From Planctomycetia bacterium (lineage in GTDB: Bacteria > Planctomycetota > Planctomycetia > Gemmatales > Gemmataceae): a stretch of 14,093 nt of DNA. Of this stretch, positions 4,757-14,093 are shown one piece after another. Within the stretch, counting starts at the first letter, position 1, and each line of letters begins with the position of its first letter. The stretch is taken from contig JAEUIF010000468.1 of assembly GCA_016795185.1 (NCBI GenBank), forward strand, positions 1-14,093. The letters run 5' to 3'. The translations under genes were made by a program, and so were the position numbers. The notes beneath the pieces were generated by a model, which did not search any database, was not told the DNA's origin, and saw nothing but the letters and a program-made list of their open reading frames with translations.

Positions 4757-5836
4757 TTACCGCTTCAGCCAGCGATCCAACCAGTCGTAAGCGACCTGGC
4801 GCACTTCCGACGGGAAGTTATGGTCGCAATCGGGGTAGCTGGCGCTCAGCCGGTCGCCCGCGCCGAGCAGTTCATAGACCGGCCGGGCGGCCCGGATGCA
4901 ATCCTTGACGCCGTCGGGATCGAAGTTGTGGTCCTTCACCGGCGCGCTGGCCAGGAAGGCGCGCGGCGCGAGCGCCGCCGTCACCTCGGTGAAATCGAAG
5001 GGCACCTTCTCCGGTTTGAGGTCGTAAACGGTACGAAGGCGCGGCATGTAGCCGTCGTGGCTCCAGCCCTTCAGGTCGCCCTTCATGTATTTCGGAAAGC
5101 TGCAAAAGCCGCAGTTGGAAACGATACAGCGAATGCGCGGATCGAACGCGGCCACAAACATGCTGTTGTGCCCACCTAGCGAATGGCCGATGACGCCGAT
5201 GCGTTTGGGATCGACTTCCGCCAGCGACTCCAGCAGATCGACGCAACGCATGTGGTTCCAGATGCCCTTCATGGTCGCGCTGACGTAGCCGTGCTGATAG
5301 GGATCGAACTGGTACTCGCCCATGTTGACGTAGTCCGGCGCGAGCGTCACGTAACCGCGTTCGGCCAGGTGGACGGCATAGGCCCGGTCTTCCTTCGGCC
5401 CCAGGCCCACCGCCACGCCTTTGCCCAGGTCGCGGCTGGTGGGGTGCAGGCACAGCACGGCCGGCAGCCTGCCCTTCGCGTCGAGCGGGATCAGCAAGTA
5501 AGCCGGCAGCCGATCGCCCTTCTCGACTGCGAGGGTAAGCTTGCGGCGCAGGTACTTCTCCATCTTCACTTCCTCGACGACTCGCACGTCGAGCGGCACC
5601 TTGCGACTGTCGTCGGGCAACGGCCCCATCACCTGCTGCATGTTCGCCAGGATGTGCGCCCGCCGCTTGGCCCAGTCGTCCGCGCTGCGGACCGGATGTT
5701 CTTTGTTGTCGGCGTCGCGCCAGACAAGGAGCTTCGTTTTGTCGGGATAGGTCGGGGTTGTTTGTGCCAGGCCGCTGCCCGGCAGCGCGGCGACCGCACC
5801 CAGACTAACGAGCAGCAACCTCGCGAATGGCTTCAT
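4757..5836 (-). CDS. secreted alpha/beta-hydrolase (dienelactone hydrolase / acetyl esterase-like), Sec signal peptide
   Basis: GHSLGG nucleophile elbow (GxSxG) in an alpha/beta-hydrolase-like context. The signal peptide MKPFARLLLVSLGAVAALPGSGLAQ begins at the internal ATG (5834-5836), which has AGGAG 9 nt upstream; the track ORF extends to 5896. Confidence 0.62.
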   Translation of the reverse strand: MKPFARLLLVSLGAVAALPGSGLAQTTPTYPDKTKLLVWRDADNKEHPVRSADDWAKRRAHILANMQQVMGPLPDDSRKVPLDVRVVEEVKMEKYLRRKLTLAVEKGDRLPAYLLIPLDAKGRLPAVLCLHPTSRDLGKGVAVGLGPKEDRAYAVHLAERGYVTLAPDYVNMGEYQFDPYQHGYVSATMKGIWNHMRCVDLLESLAEVDPKRIGVIGHSLGGHNSMFVAAFDPRIRCIVSNCGFCSFPKYMKGDLKGWSHDGYMPRLRTVYDLKPEKVPFDFTEVTAALAPRAFLASAPVKDHNFDPDGVKDCIRAARPVYELLGAGDRLSASYPDCDHNFPSEVRQVAYDWLDRWLKR

Positions 5837-5889
5837 CGGGCAAGGCTCCTTGTGGTAGAATGCGCGCAGTCTGCCTGCGAGGACCAAAC

Positions 5890-6156
5890 ATGGCAAGTAA
5901 ACTCTCCGCCCCGAACGACGCCGTTGAAATGTTCCACCGGTTGGTGGAACCGCGCAACGGCTAACTCACCAAGGCTGCGGCGCGCGTCATCCTCGGCTGG
6001 ACATTCGGGGAAGAAGATCGCACCCGCATGAATGAACTGGCCGAGAAGAATCGAGCGGGCGAACTCACGGCGGAGGAGCAAACCGAGTTGCACTGCTACC
6101 TGCGCGTGGGGAGCCTTCTCGATCTGCTGCACTCCAAGGCGCGCTTGAGCCTGTAA
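5890..6156 (+). pseudogene. small ORF (24 codons) with good RBS, followed after an in-frame TAA (5962-5964) by 63 further open codons in the same frame; possible interrupted small gene
   Basis: GAGGA lies 6 nt upstream of ATG 5890. The frame reads MASKLSAPNDAVEMFHRLVEPRNG*LTKAAARVILGWTFGEEDRTRMNELAEKNRAGELTAEEQTELHCYLRVGSLLDLLHSKARLSL*, with no alternative start near the beginning of the second segment. Confidence 0.3.
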
Positions 6157-6204: not shown

Positions 6205-6455
6205 TCCGGAGCCCCGGAGGGGCGTAAGCGCTGTAGCCCACGGCGCGAGCCGTGGGACAACGATCCCAACCACACCTCAGCCCCGGCGGGGCGGAAGATA
6301 GTCCCAAACGGTTGCTGCACAAGCGAGGTGTCGAGCACGACGAGCCCTGTTCGCGCTGCTGCCTTTCGCCCCTCCGGGGCTGGGTGCATCGAGACGTTCC
6401 GTTCCCACGGCTTGCGCCGTGGGCTACCGTGCTATCGCCCCTCCGGGGCTAACAC
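6205..6455. repeat. Cluster of REP-like GC-rich palindromic units: 15-mer AGCCCCGGAGGGGCG (x3, both orientations) and hairpin CCCACGGC-NNNN-GCCGTGGG (x2); two 47-bp copies in inverted orientation (6210-6256 and 6404-6450)
   Basis: 6210-6256 reads agccccggaggggcgtaagcgctgtagcccacggcgcgagccgtggg. The reverse complement of 6404-6450 is agccccggaggggcgatagcacggtagcccacggcgcaagccgtggg, about 85% identical. An extra 15-mer copy lies at 6367-6381 and a variant cagccccggcggggcgg at about 6279-6295. All lie in the 3' intergenic region before the stop of the 6499-9528 gene. Confidence 0.8.
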
Positions 6456-6498: not shown

Positions 6499-9400
6499 TC
6501 ACTTCCGCCCCGCCACTCCCAGCAAATACGCGATCACATCCGCCAGGTCTTGCTTGGAGAGTTGCTTTTCCAGTTCGTCGGGCATCAGCGACTTGACCGT
6601 GGCCTGGATCTCGTCGATCTCGCCGCGCAGGATGGTGTCCTCCGCTTTCTCGGCCCGGCGCAGCGTGATGCTGCCGGGGGCGTTGACGGCCAGGATGCCC
6701 GTCAGGAAGCGGCCGTTCTTCGTTGTCACCACGTAGTTCAGGTAGCGCGGATCGACCTCGCGGCTGGGGTCGAGGATGTCGATGACCAGCCCTTCCGGAG
6801 TCTTGGTCTTCAGGGCCGCCAGCAGATCCGCGCCGACCTCCGCGCCTTCGTTCTCCAGGCGGTGACAGACGCTGCAATTCTTCTTGAAGACCGCCTTGCC
6901 ACGCGGCGCGTCGCCGGCCAGGTCCAGAGCGGTGCGGTAGTCGTCGATGACCTTCTGGCGGTCGCCGGTGGTGCGGGCGGCGAAGAGTTGTGCGACGCGC
7001 TTGCGCACCTCGGCATCCGGATGCTTGCGCAGCAGGTCCACGCGGGCGGCTTCGATCTGCCCTGGCAATACCTGCTTCTTCTCGACGGCGTCGAGCAGCT
7101 GCCGCACCCGCTCCGGCCGGCCGAGCAGGGCTTCGACGGCTTCGCGGCGCAGGTCGGGCGGGTAGCTGTTCCACGCAGCCAGCAGCAGGTCGGCGATCTT
7201 CGGGCTGTCCTGGGCGGAGAGAGCACGCACGGCGGCGAGCTGCACTTCCGGTGGGTGCTGCGGCGCGAGCAAGCCCGGCAACACATCGCCGCCGACGGCG
7301 AACGGCCCGACGCCCAGCAGACGCACGGCGGCGAGCCGTTCCGGCAGCGGTTGCTTCTCGTCGCGTGCCGTTTGCGCCGCCCGCTCGAAGAACGGCCGGG
7401 CCTTGCCAACCGCTTCCTTCAGTGCGGGTGAGGGTTCTTCCCAAAGCTTGCGCAGGGGCCGCTGGGCGATTTGCAGTCCTTGTCCCAGCCCGTCCAGCAC
7501 CGCCAGTTGCCAGGCGGGACTGACCGAGTCACCGCCAAGCAGCGTCAGGGCGCGGGCCAGGTCGGCATCGCTGTTGCTCGCGCCGATCAGCGTGGCCAGT
7601 CGGACCACGAATTGCCGTTCCTCGGCGGTCAGGTTTCGCACGAACTCGCGATCCTGGCTCAGCGTCGCCAGCAGGTCCGGCGCCTTGCCCTTCGCGGAGC
7701 TGAGGATCGCCAGCTGGAACCAGGATTGGCCGGCGTCGCGCCGCGCCAGCTTGGCCAGGGCCGTAGTCAATTCGGGAGCATCGGCCGCGCCCAGGGTGAA
7801 GGCCAATTGAAAGCGCACCCGCGCCTGGGCATGGTCCACCAGCGGCGTCATGCTTTGCCGCAGCGTCGCCGATGCGGCCAGTCGGTCCTCGGCCAGCCGC
7901 AGCGCTTGTTCGACGACATAGGGGTTGGCGGCTTTCAGGTTGGCTTCGATCAGTTCATCGTCCAGGGCCTTCAGGCCGTGCAGCGTCCAGAGTGCGTGCA
8001 TGCGGCCTTGGCCCGCCGGCACGCGGTCCAGCACCTTGTCTTCGCGCGCTAGCTTCTTCAAGGGCGCGACGGCGGCCTGGTCGTGGCGTTCGATCAGCAG
8101 CCGCTGGGCGGTCAGCCGTCGCCAGCTGTTTGGGCTGCCCAGCTGCTGGACCAACTCGGCGGCCGATGCCTTGCTCAGGGCGGGCAAGTGCTGCGGTTGC
8201 TGGGCGTCGCGCGCGAGCGTTTCGGGCACGATGCGCCAGATGCGGCCGCGCCCCCGGCTATCCAGGTTCAGCTTCTTTTTGATGTCGTCGGGCAGCGATA
8301 GCGGCGTCTCAATGGCTTCGCGGTAGAAATCACAAACGTAGATCGCACCGTCGGGACCGATAGTCAGGTTGACGGGGCGGAACCAGTTGTCGGTGGAAGC
8401 CAGGAACTCGCAACCCTCATCGGCCCGCTTGGCGGTGAAGATGCTGCCCTGATCGATCAAGATATCCCGATGGATCAAATTGTTCGCCGGCTCGCAGACG
8501 AAGCTCTGGCCGTAGTATGCCTCCGGAAACAGCCCGCCGTTGTAGACCACCGGACTGCACGCGGACGTGATGAAGCCGCCCGGCACCAGTTCCGTGGGCG
8601 AGAAGCGCTTGGAGTCCGTCCCGTCCTTGCGGCGCGTGGTGCGTTCGACGCGCCAGCCTTCAAACGGACTGATGCGATGCACCTGGCAGGCCGCGCCGTG
8701 GTCGGGAATGTCGATGGTCACGGCAGGTACGGCCAGCGCCGGGTTGCGGCGCAGGTAGTGGTCGGACAGCACAATCTGCCGGAGGTGCTGGCTGTTGGTG
8801 GCAGTGAACCAGTGCTGTCCGTCGTCGGCGGCCAGGCCGAACTGCCCGCCGCCGCTGGTCGGTTCCAGGCTGCCCGGCCGCGCCGGCTGGAAGCGGATGC
8901 CCCGGCCCCGCAGCGCCACGCCCGCTCCCAAGCCGTCGCCCGTGATGGTGCCGCCCTTGCCGCCCGCATTGGCGTAGACCCAGTTGTCCAGGCCCCATTG
9001 CAGGCTGTTCAGCAGCTGCTGAATGTTGTCGAGATCGAAGCCGGTGTAGAGGACTTTCTTTTCGTAGCCCTTCGCGGTCTTCTCGAAGTAGAGCAGGTCC
9101 GGAGCGACCGCCGCCAGCAGCCCGCCCTTGTACGGCATCACGGACGTGGGAAAGCGCAGGTTCTCGGCGAACGTGCTGCTGCTCTCGTAGTAGCCGTCAC
9201 CGTTCTTATCTTCGAGCAGCTTGATCTTGCCCGTGGAGATGTCGCCGGTGCCGAGGCCGCCGTTGGGATAGCCGCGCATCTCGGCGACATACATCCGGCC
9301 GTCCTCGTCGAAGGCTAGCGCCACCGGATCGACGACTTCCGGTTCGGCGGCGACCAGTTCGACCTTGAAGCCCTTGAGGATGCGGAAGGTGGCCAGTTCT

Positions 9401-9528
9401 TCGCGCGGCGACAGCGGCCCAGCCGGCGGGTCGCTCGGCTTGTCGGCGGCGGAAAGCAGGACCGCGCCGCCCGTGAGCACCAGCAGCATCAAACCGCGCG
9501 CGAGCAATCCGAAACGCGACATGGCCAC
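6499..9528 (-). CDS. Planctomycete/Verrucomicrobia-type large exported protein: N-terminal putative membrane-bound dehydrogenase (beta-propeller) domain, central HEAT-like repeats, C-terminal c-type heme-binding domain (CSVCH)
   Basis: Signal peptide, then FRILKGFKVELVAAEPEVVDPVALAFDEDGRMYVAEMRGYP, which is typical of the Pirellula/Verrucomicrobium dehydrogenase-domain family. The C-terminus has GKAVFKKNCSVCHRLENEG, a CxxCH heme motif. The start may be GTG at 9528 or ATG at 9522. Confidence 0.75.
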   Translation of the reverse strand: MAMSRFGLLARGLMLLVLTGGAVLLSAADKPSDPPAGPLSPREELATFRILKGFKVELVAAEPEVVDPVALAFDEDGRMYVAEMRGYPNGGLGTGDISTGKIKLLEDKNGDGYYESSSTFAENLRFPTSVMPYKGGLLAAVAPDLLYFEKTAKGYEKKVLYTGFDLDNIQQLLNSLQWGLDNWVYANAGGKGGTITGDGLGAGVALRGRGIRFQPARPGSLEPTSGGGQFGLAADDGQHWFTATNSQHLRQIVLSDHYLRRNPALAVPAVTIDIPDHGAACQVHRISPFEGWRVERTTRRKDGTDSKRFSPTELVPGGFITSACSPVVYNGGLFPEAYYGQSFVCEPANNLIHRDILIDQGSIFTAKRADEGCEFLASTDNWFRPVNLTIGPDGAIYVCDFYREAIETPLSLPDDIKKKLNLDSRGRGRIWRIVPETLARDAQQPQHLPALSKASAAELVQQLGSPNSWRRLTAQRLLIERHDQAAVAPLKKLAREDKVLDRVPAGQGRMHALWTLHGLKALDDELIEANLKAANPYVVEQALRLAEDRLAASATLRQSMTPLVDHAQARVRFQLAFTLGAADAPELTTALAKLARRDAGQSWFQLAILSSAKGKAPDLLATLSQDREFVRNLTAEERQFVVRLATLIGASNSDADLARALTLLGGDSVSPAWQLAVLDGLGQGLQIAQRPLRKLWEEPSPALKEAVGKARPFFERAAQTARDEKQPLPERLAAVRLLGVGPFAVGGDVLPGLLAPQHPPEVQLAAVRALSAQDSPKIADLLLAAWNSYPPDLRREAVEALLGRPERVRQLLDAVEKKQVLPGQIEAARVDLLRKHPDAEVRKRVAQLFAARTTGDRQKVIDDYRTALDLAGDAPRGKAVFKKNCSVCHRLENEGAEVGADLLAALKTKTPEGLVIDILDPSREVDPRYLNYVVTTKNGRFLTGILAVNAPGSITLRRAEKAEDTILRGEIDEIQATVKSLMPDELEKQLSKQDLADVIAYLLGVAGRK

Positions 9529-9677: not shown

Positions 9678-11036
9678 TTACTTGGTCAATTCGTGGACCT
9701 TGGCGACGATGCGTTCCTCGATGGCGGGCGACCACTTGGTCGGGAACCCGTAATAAATCATGGAGGAATCCGCCTCGTAACCGCCTTCTTTCAAGACCCG
9801 CGCCGACGGGATGTAGGCCATCACGTCGTTGGCGTAGGCCGTCACCCAGACTGGCGGGCCGCCGCTCAGTTCCTTCTTCAGCCGCAGGGCGTAATCGACC
9901 ACCACTTCGCCGCCCAGCCCGATCCACAGCAGGTCGTTGCCCAGCCGCCAGACCTGCACCGGGTAGTGGGGATAATGATCGTCGAGCTTGCCCTTGGTTT
10001 CCAGCGTTTTCAGCAGGCGCGTCGCGCGGTTGCGCAGCGCCAGGTTCTTGCTCAGGGTATCGGCCGTCAGCTGGTCCTTCGAGGGCAGTTCGCCCAACGG
10101 CAGCGTCACCGACGCCAGTTTCGCCTTGAAGGGACCGCGCACCGGCGACATCGGCTTGCGCAGCACATCGCCGACGGCTTCCGCCAGCCCCCGGCCGTGC
10201 GTCTGGGCATGTTCCACCTGGCCGCGCGGCTGCGGGTTGGCGTCGCCCGCGCAGCCGGCCCAGAACAGGGCGACCGCGCCCGGATGCTTCGCCTCCAGGT
10301 CGGCCTGGGCGAAGCCCGCGTAGTCGCCGCACCACTGGTAAAAGTTCAGCGTGGTGTTATGGCAAGCGTAGCCGAAGACCACCGCCCGCAGCTTGCCCTC
10401 GGGCGTTTCGACCTTCAGCACCGGGACATCGTGATCCACGGGACCGGCCGGATCGCGCAGATTGATGACGCCCTTCGGCGATGCCTCGCGCCGGTTCATC
10501 GCGAAACGAATGGTGCCCTTGCCGTGCGCCAGCCGCGCGGGCCGCAGGTCCTTCAGGGCCGCCTCGACGACCTCCACCATCCAGCGGTGCAGTTGCTCGG
10601 TGTAGGCTTCGATCTTCTTCGCGTGCTCCGGCCCCATCGGGTACATGTCGGCCAGGTTCTCGCGCAGCACCGGCCCGCAGTGGGTGTGCGAACTGGTGAG
10701 CATCAGGCGCTCGCGCGGCAGCCCGGTGCGTTTGCGCACCTCCTCGGCCACCGGCTCCGCCAGACTGCGCGGGAAGCCGATCAGGTCGCTGGTCAGCAGG
10801 ACCAGCTTGCCCCCGGCGGCGTCTTCGAGGGCCACCGCCTTGAGGAACAGGTCGTGCGTCTTGCCCTCGGCCGGCTTGGTCCGGGAGGCGTAGCCGGCCA
10901 TCCACAACGGCTCCGACGGTGTGACGACCTTCACCGCCACGCCGGCCTTGAGGGCGGACTCGTCGGCCGCGCGGACCGGCAGCAGGGCCAGCAGCGTCAA
11001 GCACAGAGCGATGCCTGTCGCAAGGCAGCGGGACAT
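9678..11036 (-). CDS. secreted neutral/alkaline (non-lysosomal) ceramidase-like hydrolase, N-terminal domain type
   Basis: The signal peptide MSRCLATGIALCLTLLALLPVRAADE starts at the internal ATG (11034-11036), which has GGGAG 8 nt upstream; the track ORF runs to 11165. The region AGVAVKVVTP..WMAGYA...LMLTSSHTHCGP matches the GKADITG..VGMMGYS...ATHTHSGP layout of neutral ceramidases. It is shorter than the Pseudomonas enzyme and lacks the C-terminal tail domain. Confidence 0.6.
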   Translation of the reverse strand: MSRCLATGIALCLTLLALLPVRAADESALKAGVAVKVVTPSEPLWMAGYASRTKPAEGKTHDLFLKAVALEDAAGGKLVLLTSDLIGFPRSLAEPVAEEVRKRTGLPRERLMLTSSHTHCGPVLRENLADMYPMGPEHAKKIEAYTEQLHRWMVEVVEAALKDLRPARLAHGKGTIRFAMNRREASPKGVINLRDPAGPVDHDVPVLKVETPEGKLRAVVFGYACHNTTLNFYQWCGDYAGFAQADLEAKHPGAVALFWAGCAGDANPQPRGQVEHAQTHGRGLAEAVGDVLRKPMSPVRGPFKAKLASVTLPLGELPSKDQLTADTLSKNLALRNRATRLLKTLETKGKLDDHYPHYPVQVWRLGNDLLWIGLGGEVVVDYALRLKKELSGGPPVWVTAYANDVMAYIPSARVLKEGGYEADSSMIYYGFPTKWSPAIEERIVAKVHELTK

Positions 11037-11520
11037 GGCAGGACTCCCGAAAATGGTTCGAGGTCGGTTGGCAACGCGGACGGAAAGGTAAACCCCCGTC
11101 CGGGCACGGAGTCGCAGGGAGAGTCCATCCAGGCCGGTCAGTGCCGCCGATTGGATGGGGGGCATCTACCGACTACCCTCCGTGCCAAGAAAAATCCGGC
11201 TGGCACCGAGCCTCAAAAACCCCAATGTTTTGCCACTGCGCGCCAAAATGCGTTTCCCGCCAGACTCCCCTTGAACCGCCGCACCTCGATTTGGCAGGAT
11301 GGCGGCTGCGGAGCGCCCGGGGCTGCCCGTGATGCGCCGCTCGCGGCTTCGCCGGGCGCGCTTCCCTCGGGCCGCGCCACCCGCCAGCTGGCATCCGCCT
11401 CCGTCCGTGCTACAATTCGCTGGTTCCACGACTCCACCCCGGAGTTCGCCCGTGACGGCCGTCTCCCAGCCAACCACCGTGCCCTCGCAACCCCGGTTGC
11501 TCGACCGGGTCCGGTAGGCC

Positions 11521-12444
11521 TTGCGCGTCCGGCATTACAGCCTGCGCACCGAGGAAGCCTACGTCGCCTGGATCAGACGCTACATCTACTTTCACCACAT
11601 TCGCCACCCGGACGCGATGGGCGCGGCGGAGATCAACGCCTTCCTGACCGACCTCGCCGTCAACGGCCGGGTCGCCGCCTACACCCAGTCCCAGGCCCTG
11701 TGCGCCTTGCTGTTCCTGTACACCACCGTGCTCGAACGGCCCTTCGGCGAGCTGGGCGATGTCATCCGGGCGCGCCGGCCCAAACGCTTACCGGTGGTGC
11801 TGACTCGGCCGGAAGTGCTCCGCGTCCTGGAGCACCTGACCGACACGTATCGCCTGATCGGCCGGTTGCTCTACGGCAGCGGCCTGCGCCTGATTGAAGG
11901 CTTGCGGCTGCGGGTCCAGGACGTGGATTTCGGCCGCCACGAAATCACCGTGCGCCAGGGCAAGGGCGACAAGGACCGTCGGACCATGCTGCCCAGCTGT
12001 ATTGCAGCCGACCTACAGGCGCACATCGAACGGGTCCGCGCGCTGCACCAGCGCGACCTGGCCGAGGGGTACGGCCGGGTCTACCTGCCGCACGCGCTGG
12101 AGCGCAAGCTGCCGCACGCGGCTGCCGAGTTCGGCTGGCAGTACGTGTTTCCAGCTGCCCGGCGCTCGCGCGACCCGCGTTCGGGCGCGGTGCGACGCCA
12201 CCACGCCCACGAAGCGGCCATTTCGCGCGCCCTCACCGACGCCGTCCGCCGCTCCGGTATCCGCAAGCGGGCGACCAGTCATTCCTTCCGGCACAGTTTT
12301 GCGACGCACCTACTGGAAGCCGGCCACGACATTCGGACGGTGCAAGAACTACTCGGCCACGAAGACGTAAGTACCACGATGATCTACTGCCACGTACTGA
12401 ACAAGGGCGGCCTGGGAGTGCCCAGCCCCCTGGACGGGTTCTGA
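11521..12444 (+). CDS. intI: tyrosine recombinase with IntI-specific insertion (integron integrase-like); TTG-start ORF whose conserved N-terminus lies upstream of an in-frame TAG (11515-11517), see findings
   Basis: The [19 protein letters not shown] and [14 protein letters not shown] motifs are present, along with the IntI-specific insertion [37 protein letters not shown]. The catalytic-region motifs RHSFATHLL and [16 protein letters not shown] are also present. Similarity to IntI1/VchIntIA across the whole length is strong and recognisable from memory. Confidence 0.92.
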
Positions 12445-12595
12445 GCTGCGCAAGTATCATTATGGTGTTATTTTGCGCGGATTTTGCAGACGTTATGATT
12501 GTAATAATTTAACATCAATAGACTTGTGTTAATTCTCGCCGGCTGGGAGCAAAGAGTGTTATTTTGCGCCGGCGCAAGATAAACACATGTTAGGC
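12445..12595 (+). other. putative attI site and cassette-promoter region: AT-rich (~40% GC) with two 14-bp direct repeats GTGTTATTTTGCGC (12465-12478, 12556-12569) and core site GTTAGGC (12589-12595), followed by a second core-like GTTAAAT (12596-12602)
   Basis: Seen in sequence. The layout parallels attI1, where two GTTA-containing IntI-binding direct repeats sit upstream of the GTTAGGC simple site. Confidence 0.5.
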
Positions 12596-13207
12596 GTTAA
12601 ATACAACCGAGGCTCAACGATTGGACGCATGGGACCGACTCCGAGCGCTATTTGACACCGATGATGGCGGGTTGTATGACATCCGATTAACGGGCCTTGG
12701 TGAAGCAAGTTTGGTAGCAGCATTTGAGTTCATTCGATCCCGCTCAAAGGTTACGCCGGATGCATTGTTTTGGCACACGACCTTGCAAAAGGACGAGCGA
12801 GTGGCTGACCACCCAGATGCGCCTCGGCTTGTGGCTCAGGGCATAGCCGAACCATTTCATGTGCTCGCGTCTAGTCTTGAGTTCGCCGGCGCCATCATCC
12901 CGGATTTGGGTGTGTTCGTTTGGCCGGATGAGTTGACGTTGGACTACCGCATGGGACCAGAGTGGGATCGACCGCAACTCATCGCGTTATTTGAATTGCT
13001 ACGGCAATTGGTCGCCGTCTCAGATGGCGGAGTCGGATTGGGCCGGCACGTTCTGCCGCAGGTGGACGCCGAATTTGTGCGCGAGTGGCGGGCATACTGT
13101 CAGGTATGCGGCGAAAACGCCTAACCAACCGTTGCACCTGACGCGGCGGCATTACGGTTCTTCAGAGTTCAACGTCTCACCAGCCGCCGCGCAGGTGAAC
13201 GGTAGCG
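12590..13207 (+). mobile_element. gene cassette 1 (from G|TT of attI core to G of attC1 R')
   Basis: Bounded by GTTAGGC (12589-12595) and GTTCGGC (13207-13213). It contains one ORF and attC1. Confidence 0.65.
12621..13124 (+). CDS. cassette-encoded hypothetical protein (167 aa), ~50% GC, TTG start
   Basis: GAGG lies 8 nt upstream of TTG 12621. GC content is clearly below the ~67% host average. The TAA stop falls inside the attC R'' box GCCTAAC. No family recognised. Confidence 0.6.
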   Translation: MDAWDRLRALFDTDDGGLYDIRLTGLGEASLVAAFEFIRSRSKVTPDALFWHTTLQKDERVADHPDAPRLVAQGIAEPFHVLASSLEFAGAIIPDLGVFVWPDELTLDYRMGPEWDRPQLIALFELLRQLVAVSDGGVGLGRHVLPQVDAEFVREWRAYCQVCGENA

Positions 13208-13213
13208 TTCGGC
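13119..13213 (+). other. attC site 1 (95 bp): R'' GCCTAAC ... R' GTTCGGC, imperfect palindrome
   Basis: gcctaac-caaccgttg-cacctg-acgcggcggc ... gccgccgcg-caggtg-aacggtagc-gttcggc. The arms pair with single-base bulges (extrahelical bases). It opens with the same GCCTAAC as the aadA1 59-be. Confidence 0.7.
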
Positions 13214-13756
13214 CAAGAGAGGCTTCCCGTGGGGTTCAGGTTCCGGGGCTTCTTCTCGGACGCCGATGAAGCCGCGATGGCTGCGGCGGTAAGCCGCTGG
13301 CCGTTCTGCACGGCCAAGCCCGTCGTCGATCCGTTCCGCGGCTTCGGCCTGCGTGCCCCGGACCCCGACCGAGAGGCCGACTCCGACGAGGAGTACGAGC
13401 GACTGCTGGAGTTGCCGTTCGCGGTGGAGCGGGGCTTGGCGGAGTTCAGCCTGGGGTTCCCGGACGCGACGTTCGTGTTCATCGACGCCGATTGCGTCGG
13501 CGGCACCTGCGTGTATACCGGGTTCGTGGTACGAGCCGGTGCGGTCCACCTGAGCGTAGCGGACGTGCAGCCGGGGTCGGAGCCGTTGCAGCGACTCCTT
13601 CAGCCGCTCGGTGTGCAGCTACGGTCCGGCTACTTCGCGCCGTTCACACGCGGGTACTGGTAGGCGGCCGAACCAGGCGCTGCAGCAGACGGCGGGGGCA
13701 TGTAGGTTTTCCAGGGTCACAGCTCACTCGGCCCCCGCCGCTGTTGAGCTTGGTCG
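13208..13756 (+). mobile_element. gene cassette 2
   Basis: Runs from TT of attC1 R' (13208) to G of attC2 R' (13756). It contains one ORF and attC2. Confidence 0.6.
13229..13663 (+). CDS. cassette-encoded hypothetical protein (144 aa), GTG start
   Basis: AGAGAGG lies 6 nt upstream of GTG 13229, and the ORF starts 16 nt after the attC1 R' box. An alternative ATG is at 13277. No family recognised. Confidence 0.5.
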   Translation: MGFRFRGFFSDADEAAMAAAVSRWPFCTAKPVVDPFRGFGLRAPDPDREADSDEEYERLLELPFAVERGLAEFSLGFPDATFVFIDADCVGGTCVYTGFVVRAGAVHLSVADVQPGSEPLQRLLQPLGVQLRSGYFAPFTRGYW

Positions 13757-13762
13757 TTCGGC
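13667..13762 (+). other. attC site 2 (96 bp): R'' GCCGAAC ... R' GTTCGGC (perfectly complementary boxes), imperfect palindrome
   Basis: gccgaac-caggcgctgcagcag-acggcgggggc ... gcccccgccg-ctgttgagcttggtc-gttcggc. The L''/L' G5/C5 cores pair and the arms carry bulges. Confidence 0.65.
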
Positions 13763-13780
13763 GGCGGAAGCGGAGTCGCG

Positions 13781-13960
13781 GATGGACCCATACCGGCAGC
13801 TCGCGGCGGGTCCCAGGACGGGGTCGCCGCGCCGGTTCGTGGCCCCCCGGTCCTGGGGCCTCCCGTCCCCGGCCCGCTCCGCCGGGGGGCACGGCTCAGC
13901 GCGTTCAGGGGCGACCGGCGGTGACGGCCGAACCACCGCGTTCAGCTGCCTCCTCTAGCC
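13781..13960 (+). CDS. possible small cassette ORF (59 aa, low complexity, Arg/Gly/Pro-rich)
   Basis: GGAG lies 6 nt upstream of ATG 13781. The stop TAG at 13958-13960 lies just after an attC-like start (GCCGAAC 13927-13933). This could be a spurious high-GC ORF. Confidence 0.2.
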
Positions 13961-14056
13961 CGCATTTCTCACCAGAATAAGGAACCGGCTTGCTTCCGGA
14001 GCGTCAAGTGATTGTAGCCGCAGTCACTTGCGTTTCCTGGAAGGAGCAAGCCGGTC

Positions 14057-14093
14057 ATGACACAGTGTAGCAGCCCGCCGTTGACTTTTCACG
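14057..14093 (+). CDS. 5' end of an ORF running off the window (MTQCSSPPLTFH...)
   Basis: AAGGAG (14041-14046) lies 10 nt upstream of ATG 14057. The SD is embedded in the right arm of a long hairpin (13984-14055). Confidence 0.3.
   Translation, partial: MTQCSSPPLTFH

Follow-up and report, generated by a model that had tools for sequence, protein, structure and literature searches.

An integron whose integrase gene, intI, is transcribed toward its recombination site, attI, was described from Treponema denticola in 2004 (Coleman et al.), and later papers call such elements 'unusual' or 'reverse' integrons (PMC3607928, PMC4909258). The 'inverted integron-integrase group' was first treated as monophyletic and was later found to be paraphyletic (PMC4889954). 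Another paper places inverted IntI proteins in a sub-clade of the soil/freshwater IntIs (PMC8352920). Planctomycetes are among the integron-bearing phyla (PMC4889954), with Rhodopirellula baltica among the species listed (PMC3108266), and a Planctomycetes-specific attC model is already in the literature. Here we describe the 14,093-bp contig JAEUIF010000468.1 of a Planctomycetia bacterium metagenome-assembled genome (GCA_016795185.1); the window, as we call the stretch analyzed, is this entire contig. The window very probably carries a chromosomal inverted-integrase ('reverse') integron in which intI has an amber codon at position 22. Its features, including two cassettes with one open reading frame (ORF) each, are as follows.

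11388 to 11416, + strand: candidate intI promoter (CTGGCA, 17 nt, TACAAT, with an upstream TG), 36 nt before GTG 11452
11452 to 12444, + strand: intI, integron integrase gene, in the frame running from GTG 11452 to the TGA at 12444, identified by TIGR02249 and alignment to 2A3V
11515 to 11517, + strand: in-frame TAG at intI codon 22, in the translation of the GTG 11452 frame
12431 to 12460, + strand: candidate cassette promoter Pc, putatively sigma-70-like (TGGACG, 18 nt, TATCAT), overlapping the intI stop codon
12445 to 12595, + strand: putative attI region, 42% GC, with direct repeats, a palindrome and the core GTTAGGC
12590 to 13207, + strand: cassette 1, with ORF 12621-13124 (167 aa, JNM56_13425)
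13119 to 13213, + strand: attC1, with R'' GCCTAAC, R' GTTCGGC and top-strand bulges at positions 16 (G) and 23 (A)
13208 to 13756, + strand: cassette 2, with ORF 13229-13663 (144 aa, JNM56_13430)
13667 to 13762, + strand: attC2, with R'' GCCGAAC, R' GTTCGGC and bulges at positions 16 (G) and 23 (A)
13757 to 14093, + strand: third unit, consisting of a GC-rich stretch, a half-site, a hairpin and an ATG at the contig end

The T. denticola reverse integron shares with the window its orientation, its chromosomal location and cassettes that are mostly of unknown function. It differs in its phylum (Spirochaetes rather than Planctomycetota), and the window has a premature stop in intI and two complete cassettes in view. 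The two are likened by layout, and since the inverted group is paraphyletic, shared descent is not established (PMC4889954). An earlier note on this DNA had called the layout Treponema-type and had stated that it was already reported, Planctomycetes included; the comparison is apt (PMC3607928, PMC4909258, PMC4889954) and the statement is documented in the literature. With the inverted sub-clade of soil/freshwater IntIs, the window shares host phylum, soil and freshwater metagenome relatives, orientation and a taxon-typical attC family, and there is no qualitative difference, the window IntI being 80% identical to the closest deposited IntI. Its identity to classical soil/freshwater IntIs is 57-66% (among the matches listed), yet it belongs to a distinct same-direction clade. 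Orientation, host phylum and clade are thus all on record and leave knowledge of integrons unchanged; the locus adds a clearly bounded case to the reverse integrons, which have been little studied.

By its sequence, the window recombinase is an IntI and not XerC or XerD. The NCBIfam profile TIGR02249 ('integron integrase') scored 461 bits on the open 307-aa part of the protein, against a cut-off of 265, and the open frame, which begins at 11521, covers positions 9-314 of its 315. XerC (TIGR02224) and XerD (TIGR02225) reached 132.6 bits (cut-off 335) and 121.3 bits (cut-off 330), and the XerC, XerD and XerA models together ranged over 121-148 bits, all under their own cut-offs. Grouping with XerC/D was the outcome that the earlier note had considered fatal to its proposal, and these scores point the other way. 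Pfam found a SAM-like N-domain and a catalytic domain. Residues 13-318 of VchIntIA, the Vibrio cholerae integrase (PDB 2A3V), aligned in one unbroken stretch with the window IntI (E 3e-88), the next-best solved structures being XerA and XerC-like recombinases at no more than 96-98 bits. This alignment runs without interruption through VchIntIA residues 188-241, so that the extra segment specific to IntI is present, and the residues that hold extrahelical bases in VchIntIA (W219, P232 and H240/H241) are conserved; VchIntIA W157 is replaced by Arg, as in IntI1. The catalytic R, K, H-x-x-R, H and Y are kept, in motifs that are invariant in our homologue alignment (A2). The nearest database proteins, of 320-335 aa, were 70-80% identical, the closest 80%, and are labelled integron integrase in Planctomycetia, Gemmataceae or Fimbriiglobus. 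GC content at third codon positions (GC3) of intI is 0.85, which is host-like, and apart from the TAG the gene has no further lesion.

That TAG leaves the intI frame broken at codon 22, which bears on the activity of the element and not on its identity. The next possible start past it is TTG 11521, which opens the longest frame (11521-12444, 307 aa). In alignment A2, the peptide ahead of the TAG, QPRLLDRVR, corresponds to a conserved PKLLDRVR in 13 close homologues, and the nearest homologue (P0001) has Gln at the TAG position, from which we infer a single CAG-to-TAG change. The protein collection holds 100%-identical entries for both cassette proteins and none for the IntI of the same contig, a pattern that suggests a pseudogene call on intI by the depositor's pipeline. 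Reassignment of TAG was considered and rejected, since TAG terminates both the SelA-like gene and the cassette 2 ORF on this contig. Production of full-length IntI by this copy is therefore probably blocked at present, leaving at most an N-terminally shortened form from TTG 11521. The gene may be freshly inactivated, or shortened by ~23 residues through use of that TTG, or the TAG may be a consensus error. A practical lesson is that the intI of this copy may be dead.

The strongest competing explanation is that the integron is fully functional, either because the TAG at 11515 arose by a mistake in sequencing or in the consensus or because the 307-aa protein from TTG 11521 is active, and we regard this as a serious contender that falls somewhat short of an even chance. 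The near-complete coverage of TIGR02249 by the open frame argues for it, as do the beginning of the VchIntIA match at its residue 13, a Met, the retention of all catalytic and attC-contact residues in the 307-aa frame, the host-like GC3 of a gene without other lesions, and a homologue (P0062) whose annotated start lies just four residues ahead of the stop position. However, the upstream LLDR(V/L)R motif, kept in thirteen close homologues, would be lost or cut off, and the absence of this IntI from a collection that holds its cassette proteins again points to a pseudogene call. Decay of intI is also seen in a relative, locus L207, where the gene (8901-9421) is down to residues 155-328 and frameshifted, and intI pseudogenes are on record (PMC4889954).

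As the earlier note had read it, intI, both cassette ORFs and the top strands of both attC sites all lie on the + strand, with attI downstream of the intI stop and the cassettes beyond it. To place this layout among relatives, we surveyed 84 loci with strict site calls, each locus turned so that intI was on the + strand; strand calling had been validated on classical proteobacterial arrays, where it behaved as expected. Sites on the strand opposite intI numbered 67 to the left (classical) and 0 to the right; those sharing its strand numbered 10 to the right and 1 to the left. In a neighbor-joining tree of the 84 IntIs, all same-direction loci fell with the window into one 12-leaf clade, made up of the window, L081-L083, L075 and acidobacterial, gemmatimonad and nitrospiral relatives. 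All nine of its orientable members were same-direction, and every orientable locus outside it was classical. The closest relatives (L081, L082, L083, L075 and L207; Planctomycetia/Gemmataceae, 70-80% identity) share the window layout, and the attC covariance model described below (R1) found same-strand downstream sites in L075, L082, L083 and L207. An independent Logan assembly, L204, was 100% identical over 11705-13694, confirming the junctions between the intI 3' end, attI, cassette 1 and cassette 2. Since the layout is confined to one IntI clade and its junctions are reproduced in L204, it is a lineage trait and not a local inversion or misassembly.

A classical divergent integron whose intI was recently flipped by local inversion or misassembly is accordingly very improbable. 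Such events have a precedent in the isolated inverted intI of a class 1 integron of Acinetobacter baumannii 1656-2 (Cury et al., PMC4889954), and mobile elements are at hand in the related array L082 (8170-10960), which contains two IS110-family transposase genes. Against this, the order of intI 3' end, attI and cassettes recurs together with a conserved attI plan in L081, L082, L083, L075 and L207, orientation tracks the IntI phylogeny, the junction is identical in the independent assembly, and there are no insertion sequence (IS) or inverted-repeat scars around intI. The survey also turned up one attC sequence family that adjoins both classical intI genes (51-55% identical to that of the window) and same-direction ones (58-63%), at loci L089 and L125 versus L146, L165 and L183, and also at L197; both integron layouts thus seem to draw on one cassette pool. 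Locus L197 itself has an odd arrangement, downstream but on the opposite strand.

The attC sites were examined with a covariance model, R1, built from 43 non-redundant attC sites of other contigs only, the window sites being unused, and scanned with filters off. On the + strand, attC2 scored 91.2 bits (E 2e-22) and attC1 74.8 bits (E 4e-18), against 25.4 and 22.7 bits, respectively, on the minus strand; elsewhere in the 14 kb, neither strand had a hit at E<0.01. The failure of such models on these two intervals, which the earlier note had offered as grounds for dropping its proposal, was thus not observed. Rfam 15, which lacks an attC family, gave no attC match in the window, where its only matches were the Acido-Lenti-1 RNA copies described below. 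A scan for NNNNAAC...GTTNNNN hairpins returned 13119-13213 and 13667-13762 as the sole finds to the right of intI, with no comparable hairpin on its left side. In both sites, R''/R' boxes and an unpaired spacer lead into a 3-bp stem that ends at the bulge at 16 and a 6-bp stem that ends at the bulge at 23, beyond which come the long stem and the variable loop; this is the canonical attC geometry. In known attC sites, extrahelical bases (EHBs) stand at 16 and 23/24 with a 6-bp stem between them, on that arm of the recombined bottom strand which faces AAC (PMC5027507). In the window, the bulges of both sites are on the AAC-bearing arm of the + strand, which makes the + strand the top and the - strand the bottom strand.

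These sites belong to a widespread family. A 20-mer from attC2 matched at least 120 metagenome contigs, and 115 of the 164 strand-assignable related hairpins had single-base bulges exactly at 16 and 23 of one arm. attC2 was 89-91% identical to attC sites of L081 and L083. In the 43-site alignment, 93.8% of cells were paired, compared with 74.9% after shuffling and 25-46% with slid partners, a percentage that was partly selected for because the sites had been pre-filtered for hairpins bulged at 16 and 23; compensatory changes on both sides occurred in 18 of the 26 pairs. The position-16 base was G on the top strand (C on the bottom strand) in 111 of the 115 sites of the family, and C16 was also present in two classical arrays, L018 and L030. 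Compared with V. cholerae, the window shares the end-to-end integrase alignment with its W219, P232 and H240/H241 and an attC of ~95 nt with extrahelical bases; in V. cholerae, however, intI is divergent from the array and VCR has G at 16 and three EHBs, whereas the window has C at 16 (bottom strand) and two EHBs (16 and 23). The two-EHB geometry, with its 6-bp stem between 16 and 23, is shared with attC(aadA7) (PMC5027507), but class 1 attC is ~60 nt long, against 95-96 nt in the window.

The stretches between these sites behave as cassettes. The cassette ORFs end 0-3 nt ahead of, or within, a GCCNAAC...GTTCGGC hairpin. Cassette 2 was 75% identical to a cassette of L207, the similarity starting exactly at the GTTCGGC core (13207 = L207:9979); upstream of this shared core the sequences of the window and L207 are unrelated, and in both the cognate attC follows the cassette. 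A homologue of the cassette 1 protein (74% identity) sits mid-array in L205 and L206, whose arrays of at least 10 kb consist of small same-strand ORFs that include ParD/ParE, SUKH and HNH cassettes. BLAST of cassette 1 against all fetched loci gave no match. Its GC3 of 0.60 is foreign, compared with 0.83-0.87 for intI and host genes; that of cassette 2 is 0.87. Both cassettes are therefore discrete units of one ORF plus one attC each, which bears out the claim of at least two same-strand cassettes ending in attC sites. The earlier note had also stated that the cassette proteins have no recognizable function, and this held in part. PADLOC, Pfam and NCBIfam gave no match for the cassette ORFs, nor for the small minus-strand ORFs. 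Protein 2 had 34 homologues, and the model of its ORF had no PDB fold match at E <0.1; protein 1, in contrast, appears from modelling to have a recognizable CdiI-immunity-like fold, despite lacking a sequence-family match.

The notion that there is no integron here, but an Xer-like or phage-type tyrosine recombinase beside ordinary small genes with REP-like palindromes or terminators, is scarcely credible, since, although the hairpins are GC-rich palindromes after stop codons, as terminators and REP elements are, and the cassette proteins lack a Pfam or NCBIfam family, the IntI-specific model score and VchIntIA alignment speak for an integrase, the hairpins lack a T-tract and did not register as terminators, their AAC/GTT boxes, 16/23 bulges, covariation and strand asymmetry of 50-66 bits fit attC, and homology between cassette 2 and L207 breaks at the GTT core.

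Between the intI stop and the first cassette ORF lies a spacer of 176 nt (12445-12620) with 42% GC, compared with ~67% in the flanks and contig, in agreement with the AT-rich attI-like region that had been proposed. It contains two identical 14-mers, GTGTTATTTTGCGC, at 12465 and 12556, 91 nt apart, and a third copy, GTGTTAATTCTCGC, at 12526 with 3 mismatches; the repeat count is weak by itself, as 12 of 200 shuffled sequences also gave at least three such matches. A 12+12 palindrome (TTATTTTGCGCC and GGCGCAAGATAA) occupies 12559-12582, its left arm being the proximal 14-mer copy, and six bases past it, 145 nt past the intI stop, is the core site GTTAGGC (12589-12595). The site thus adjoins intI and has a GTTRRRY core at the first cassette junction. 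Loci L081, L082, L083 and L207 share this plan with the window, about 115-185 nt past the intI stop: a distal repeat, a palindrome ~95 nt further on, a CTAAT-type box and GTTCGGC. Since BLAST of the attI region against all fetched loci gave no match, its conservation is architectural and does not extend to alignable sequence. By analogy with attI1 of class 1 integrons, we regard the region as a putative attI site with accessory IntI-binding repeats. The two share a GTTRRRY core at the cassette junction and upstream direct repeats, those of the window being reminiscent of DR1/DR2; they differ in that the window attI lies past the intI 3' end and not before its 5' end, and in that its identical repeats are 91 nt apart. 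The attI consensus (distal repeat, palindrome, CTAAT-type box, GTTCGGC) is usable and, together with a homogeneous attC family on at least 120 soil/freshwater contigs, could give a starting point for assays of recombination by an inverted-clade IntI, a kind of experiment that is still rare.

In the integron reaction, IntI binds the folded bottom strand of attC and double-stranded attI, a single strand is exchanged between the G and the TT of the core, and the resulting junction is resolved by replication. Given this established point of exchange, cassettes would enter the window element at 12589/12590 and would leave by recombination between attC sites. Once inserted, promoterless cassettes could be read from the candidate promoter at the intI 3' end or in attI (12431-12460). 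Alternatively or additionally, they could be read through from the intI promoter, which would be possible in this orientation only. Both candidate promoters come from a consensus scan that returned 3 sites versus 0.4 expected; the calls are sequence matches, and planctomycete promoters may differ from the consensus used. Despite the amber codon, another IntI could move the cassettes in trans. A further elaboration, which we consider unlikely, is that throughout this clade intI, attI and the first cassettes form a single transcription unit that couples integrase and cassette expression, with the conserved palindrome (12559-12582 in the window) as an operator or attenuator and the uniform C16 reflecting a co-evolved IntI pocket that gives the lineage a cassette specificity of its own.

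Sedentary chromosomal integrons have long arrays of ~20 or more similar attC sites and are fixed in their species. The chromosomal neighbors and the host-like GC3 of intI are suggestive of this type. Several points count against the interpretation as a reverse chromosomal integron with an amber codon in intI. Position 16 of the bottom strand is C in the window sites and not the usual G (PMC5027507). The sites behind R1 were pre-filtered, as noted above, and both promoter calls, for intI and for Pc, rest on consensus matches. The TAG itself may stem from a mistake in the assembly or consensus, and the independent contig L204 begins at 11705, past it. Finally, the window has only two complete attC sites and ends 331 nt past the second, which bears on array size and sedentary status; the array is not sizable from this contig.

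The tail beyond attC2 begins with a 170-nt ORF-less stretch (13757-13926) of 79% GC that is highly self-complementary, followed at 13927-13949 by an R''-L''-like half-site, GCCGAACCACCGCGTTCAGCTGC, that scored 12 bits with R1 (E 0.14) and has T and C at the bulge positions, not G and A. An R' partner for it, in the approximate L'-R' form ...CAGCTGAACG...GTTCGGC, was not found before the contig end. The interval 13757-13949 could represent either a cassette without an ORF or a terminal attC that has degenerated. BLAST of the tail (13763-14093) against all fetched loci gave no match, and neither did an exact 40-mer from the contig end in the metagenome collection. Exact-protein look-ups of the window IntI, of the cassette 1 ORF read from ATG 12630 and of P0001 likewise had no match. 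Insertion of an IS110 element or a group IIC intron into a third attC, an idea suggested by the IS110 genes of L082, was considered, with no similarity or transposase signal in its favor. A 72-nt imperfect hairpin (13984-14055) with perfect 11-nt outer arms (ACCGGCTTGCT and AGCAAGCCGGT) sequesters GGAAGGAG, a ribosome-binding-like motif, directly ahead of an ATG at 14057 whose frame runs off the contig end; this hairpin may serve to control translation or may belong to a mobile element that has gone unrecognized.

The genes flanking the integron are, by profile match, ordinary chromosomal ones:

145 to 1344, - strand: SelA-like pyridoxal phosphate (PLP) enzyme, profile match
4757 to 5896, - strand: glucuronyl-esterase-like hydrolase, profile match
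6499 to 9528, - strand: PVC-type CxxCH haem-binding protein with DUF7133, profile match
9678 to 11165, - strand: neutral-ceramidase-like protein, profile match

The PVC-type haem protein and the origin of the contig in a Planctomycetia genome accord with the Planctomycete-like host that had been recognized earlier. No relative examined had the same genes upstream of intI. Copies of the Acido-Lenti-1 RNA (RF01687) are present upstream of the PVC-type haem-binding gene, in the intergenic gap. Two matches are full-length and in opposite orientation, at 6210-6256 (- strand) and 6404-6450 (+ strand), and score 36.9 and 38.6 bits, the gathering score being 37; a partial third copy lies in the same gap at 6352-6381 (+ strand).

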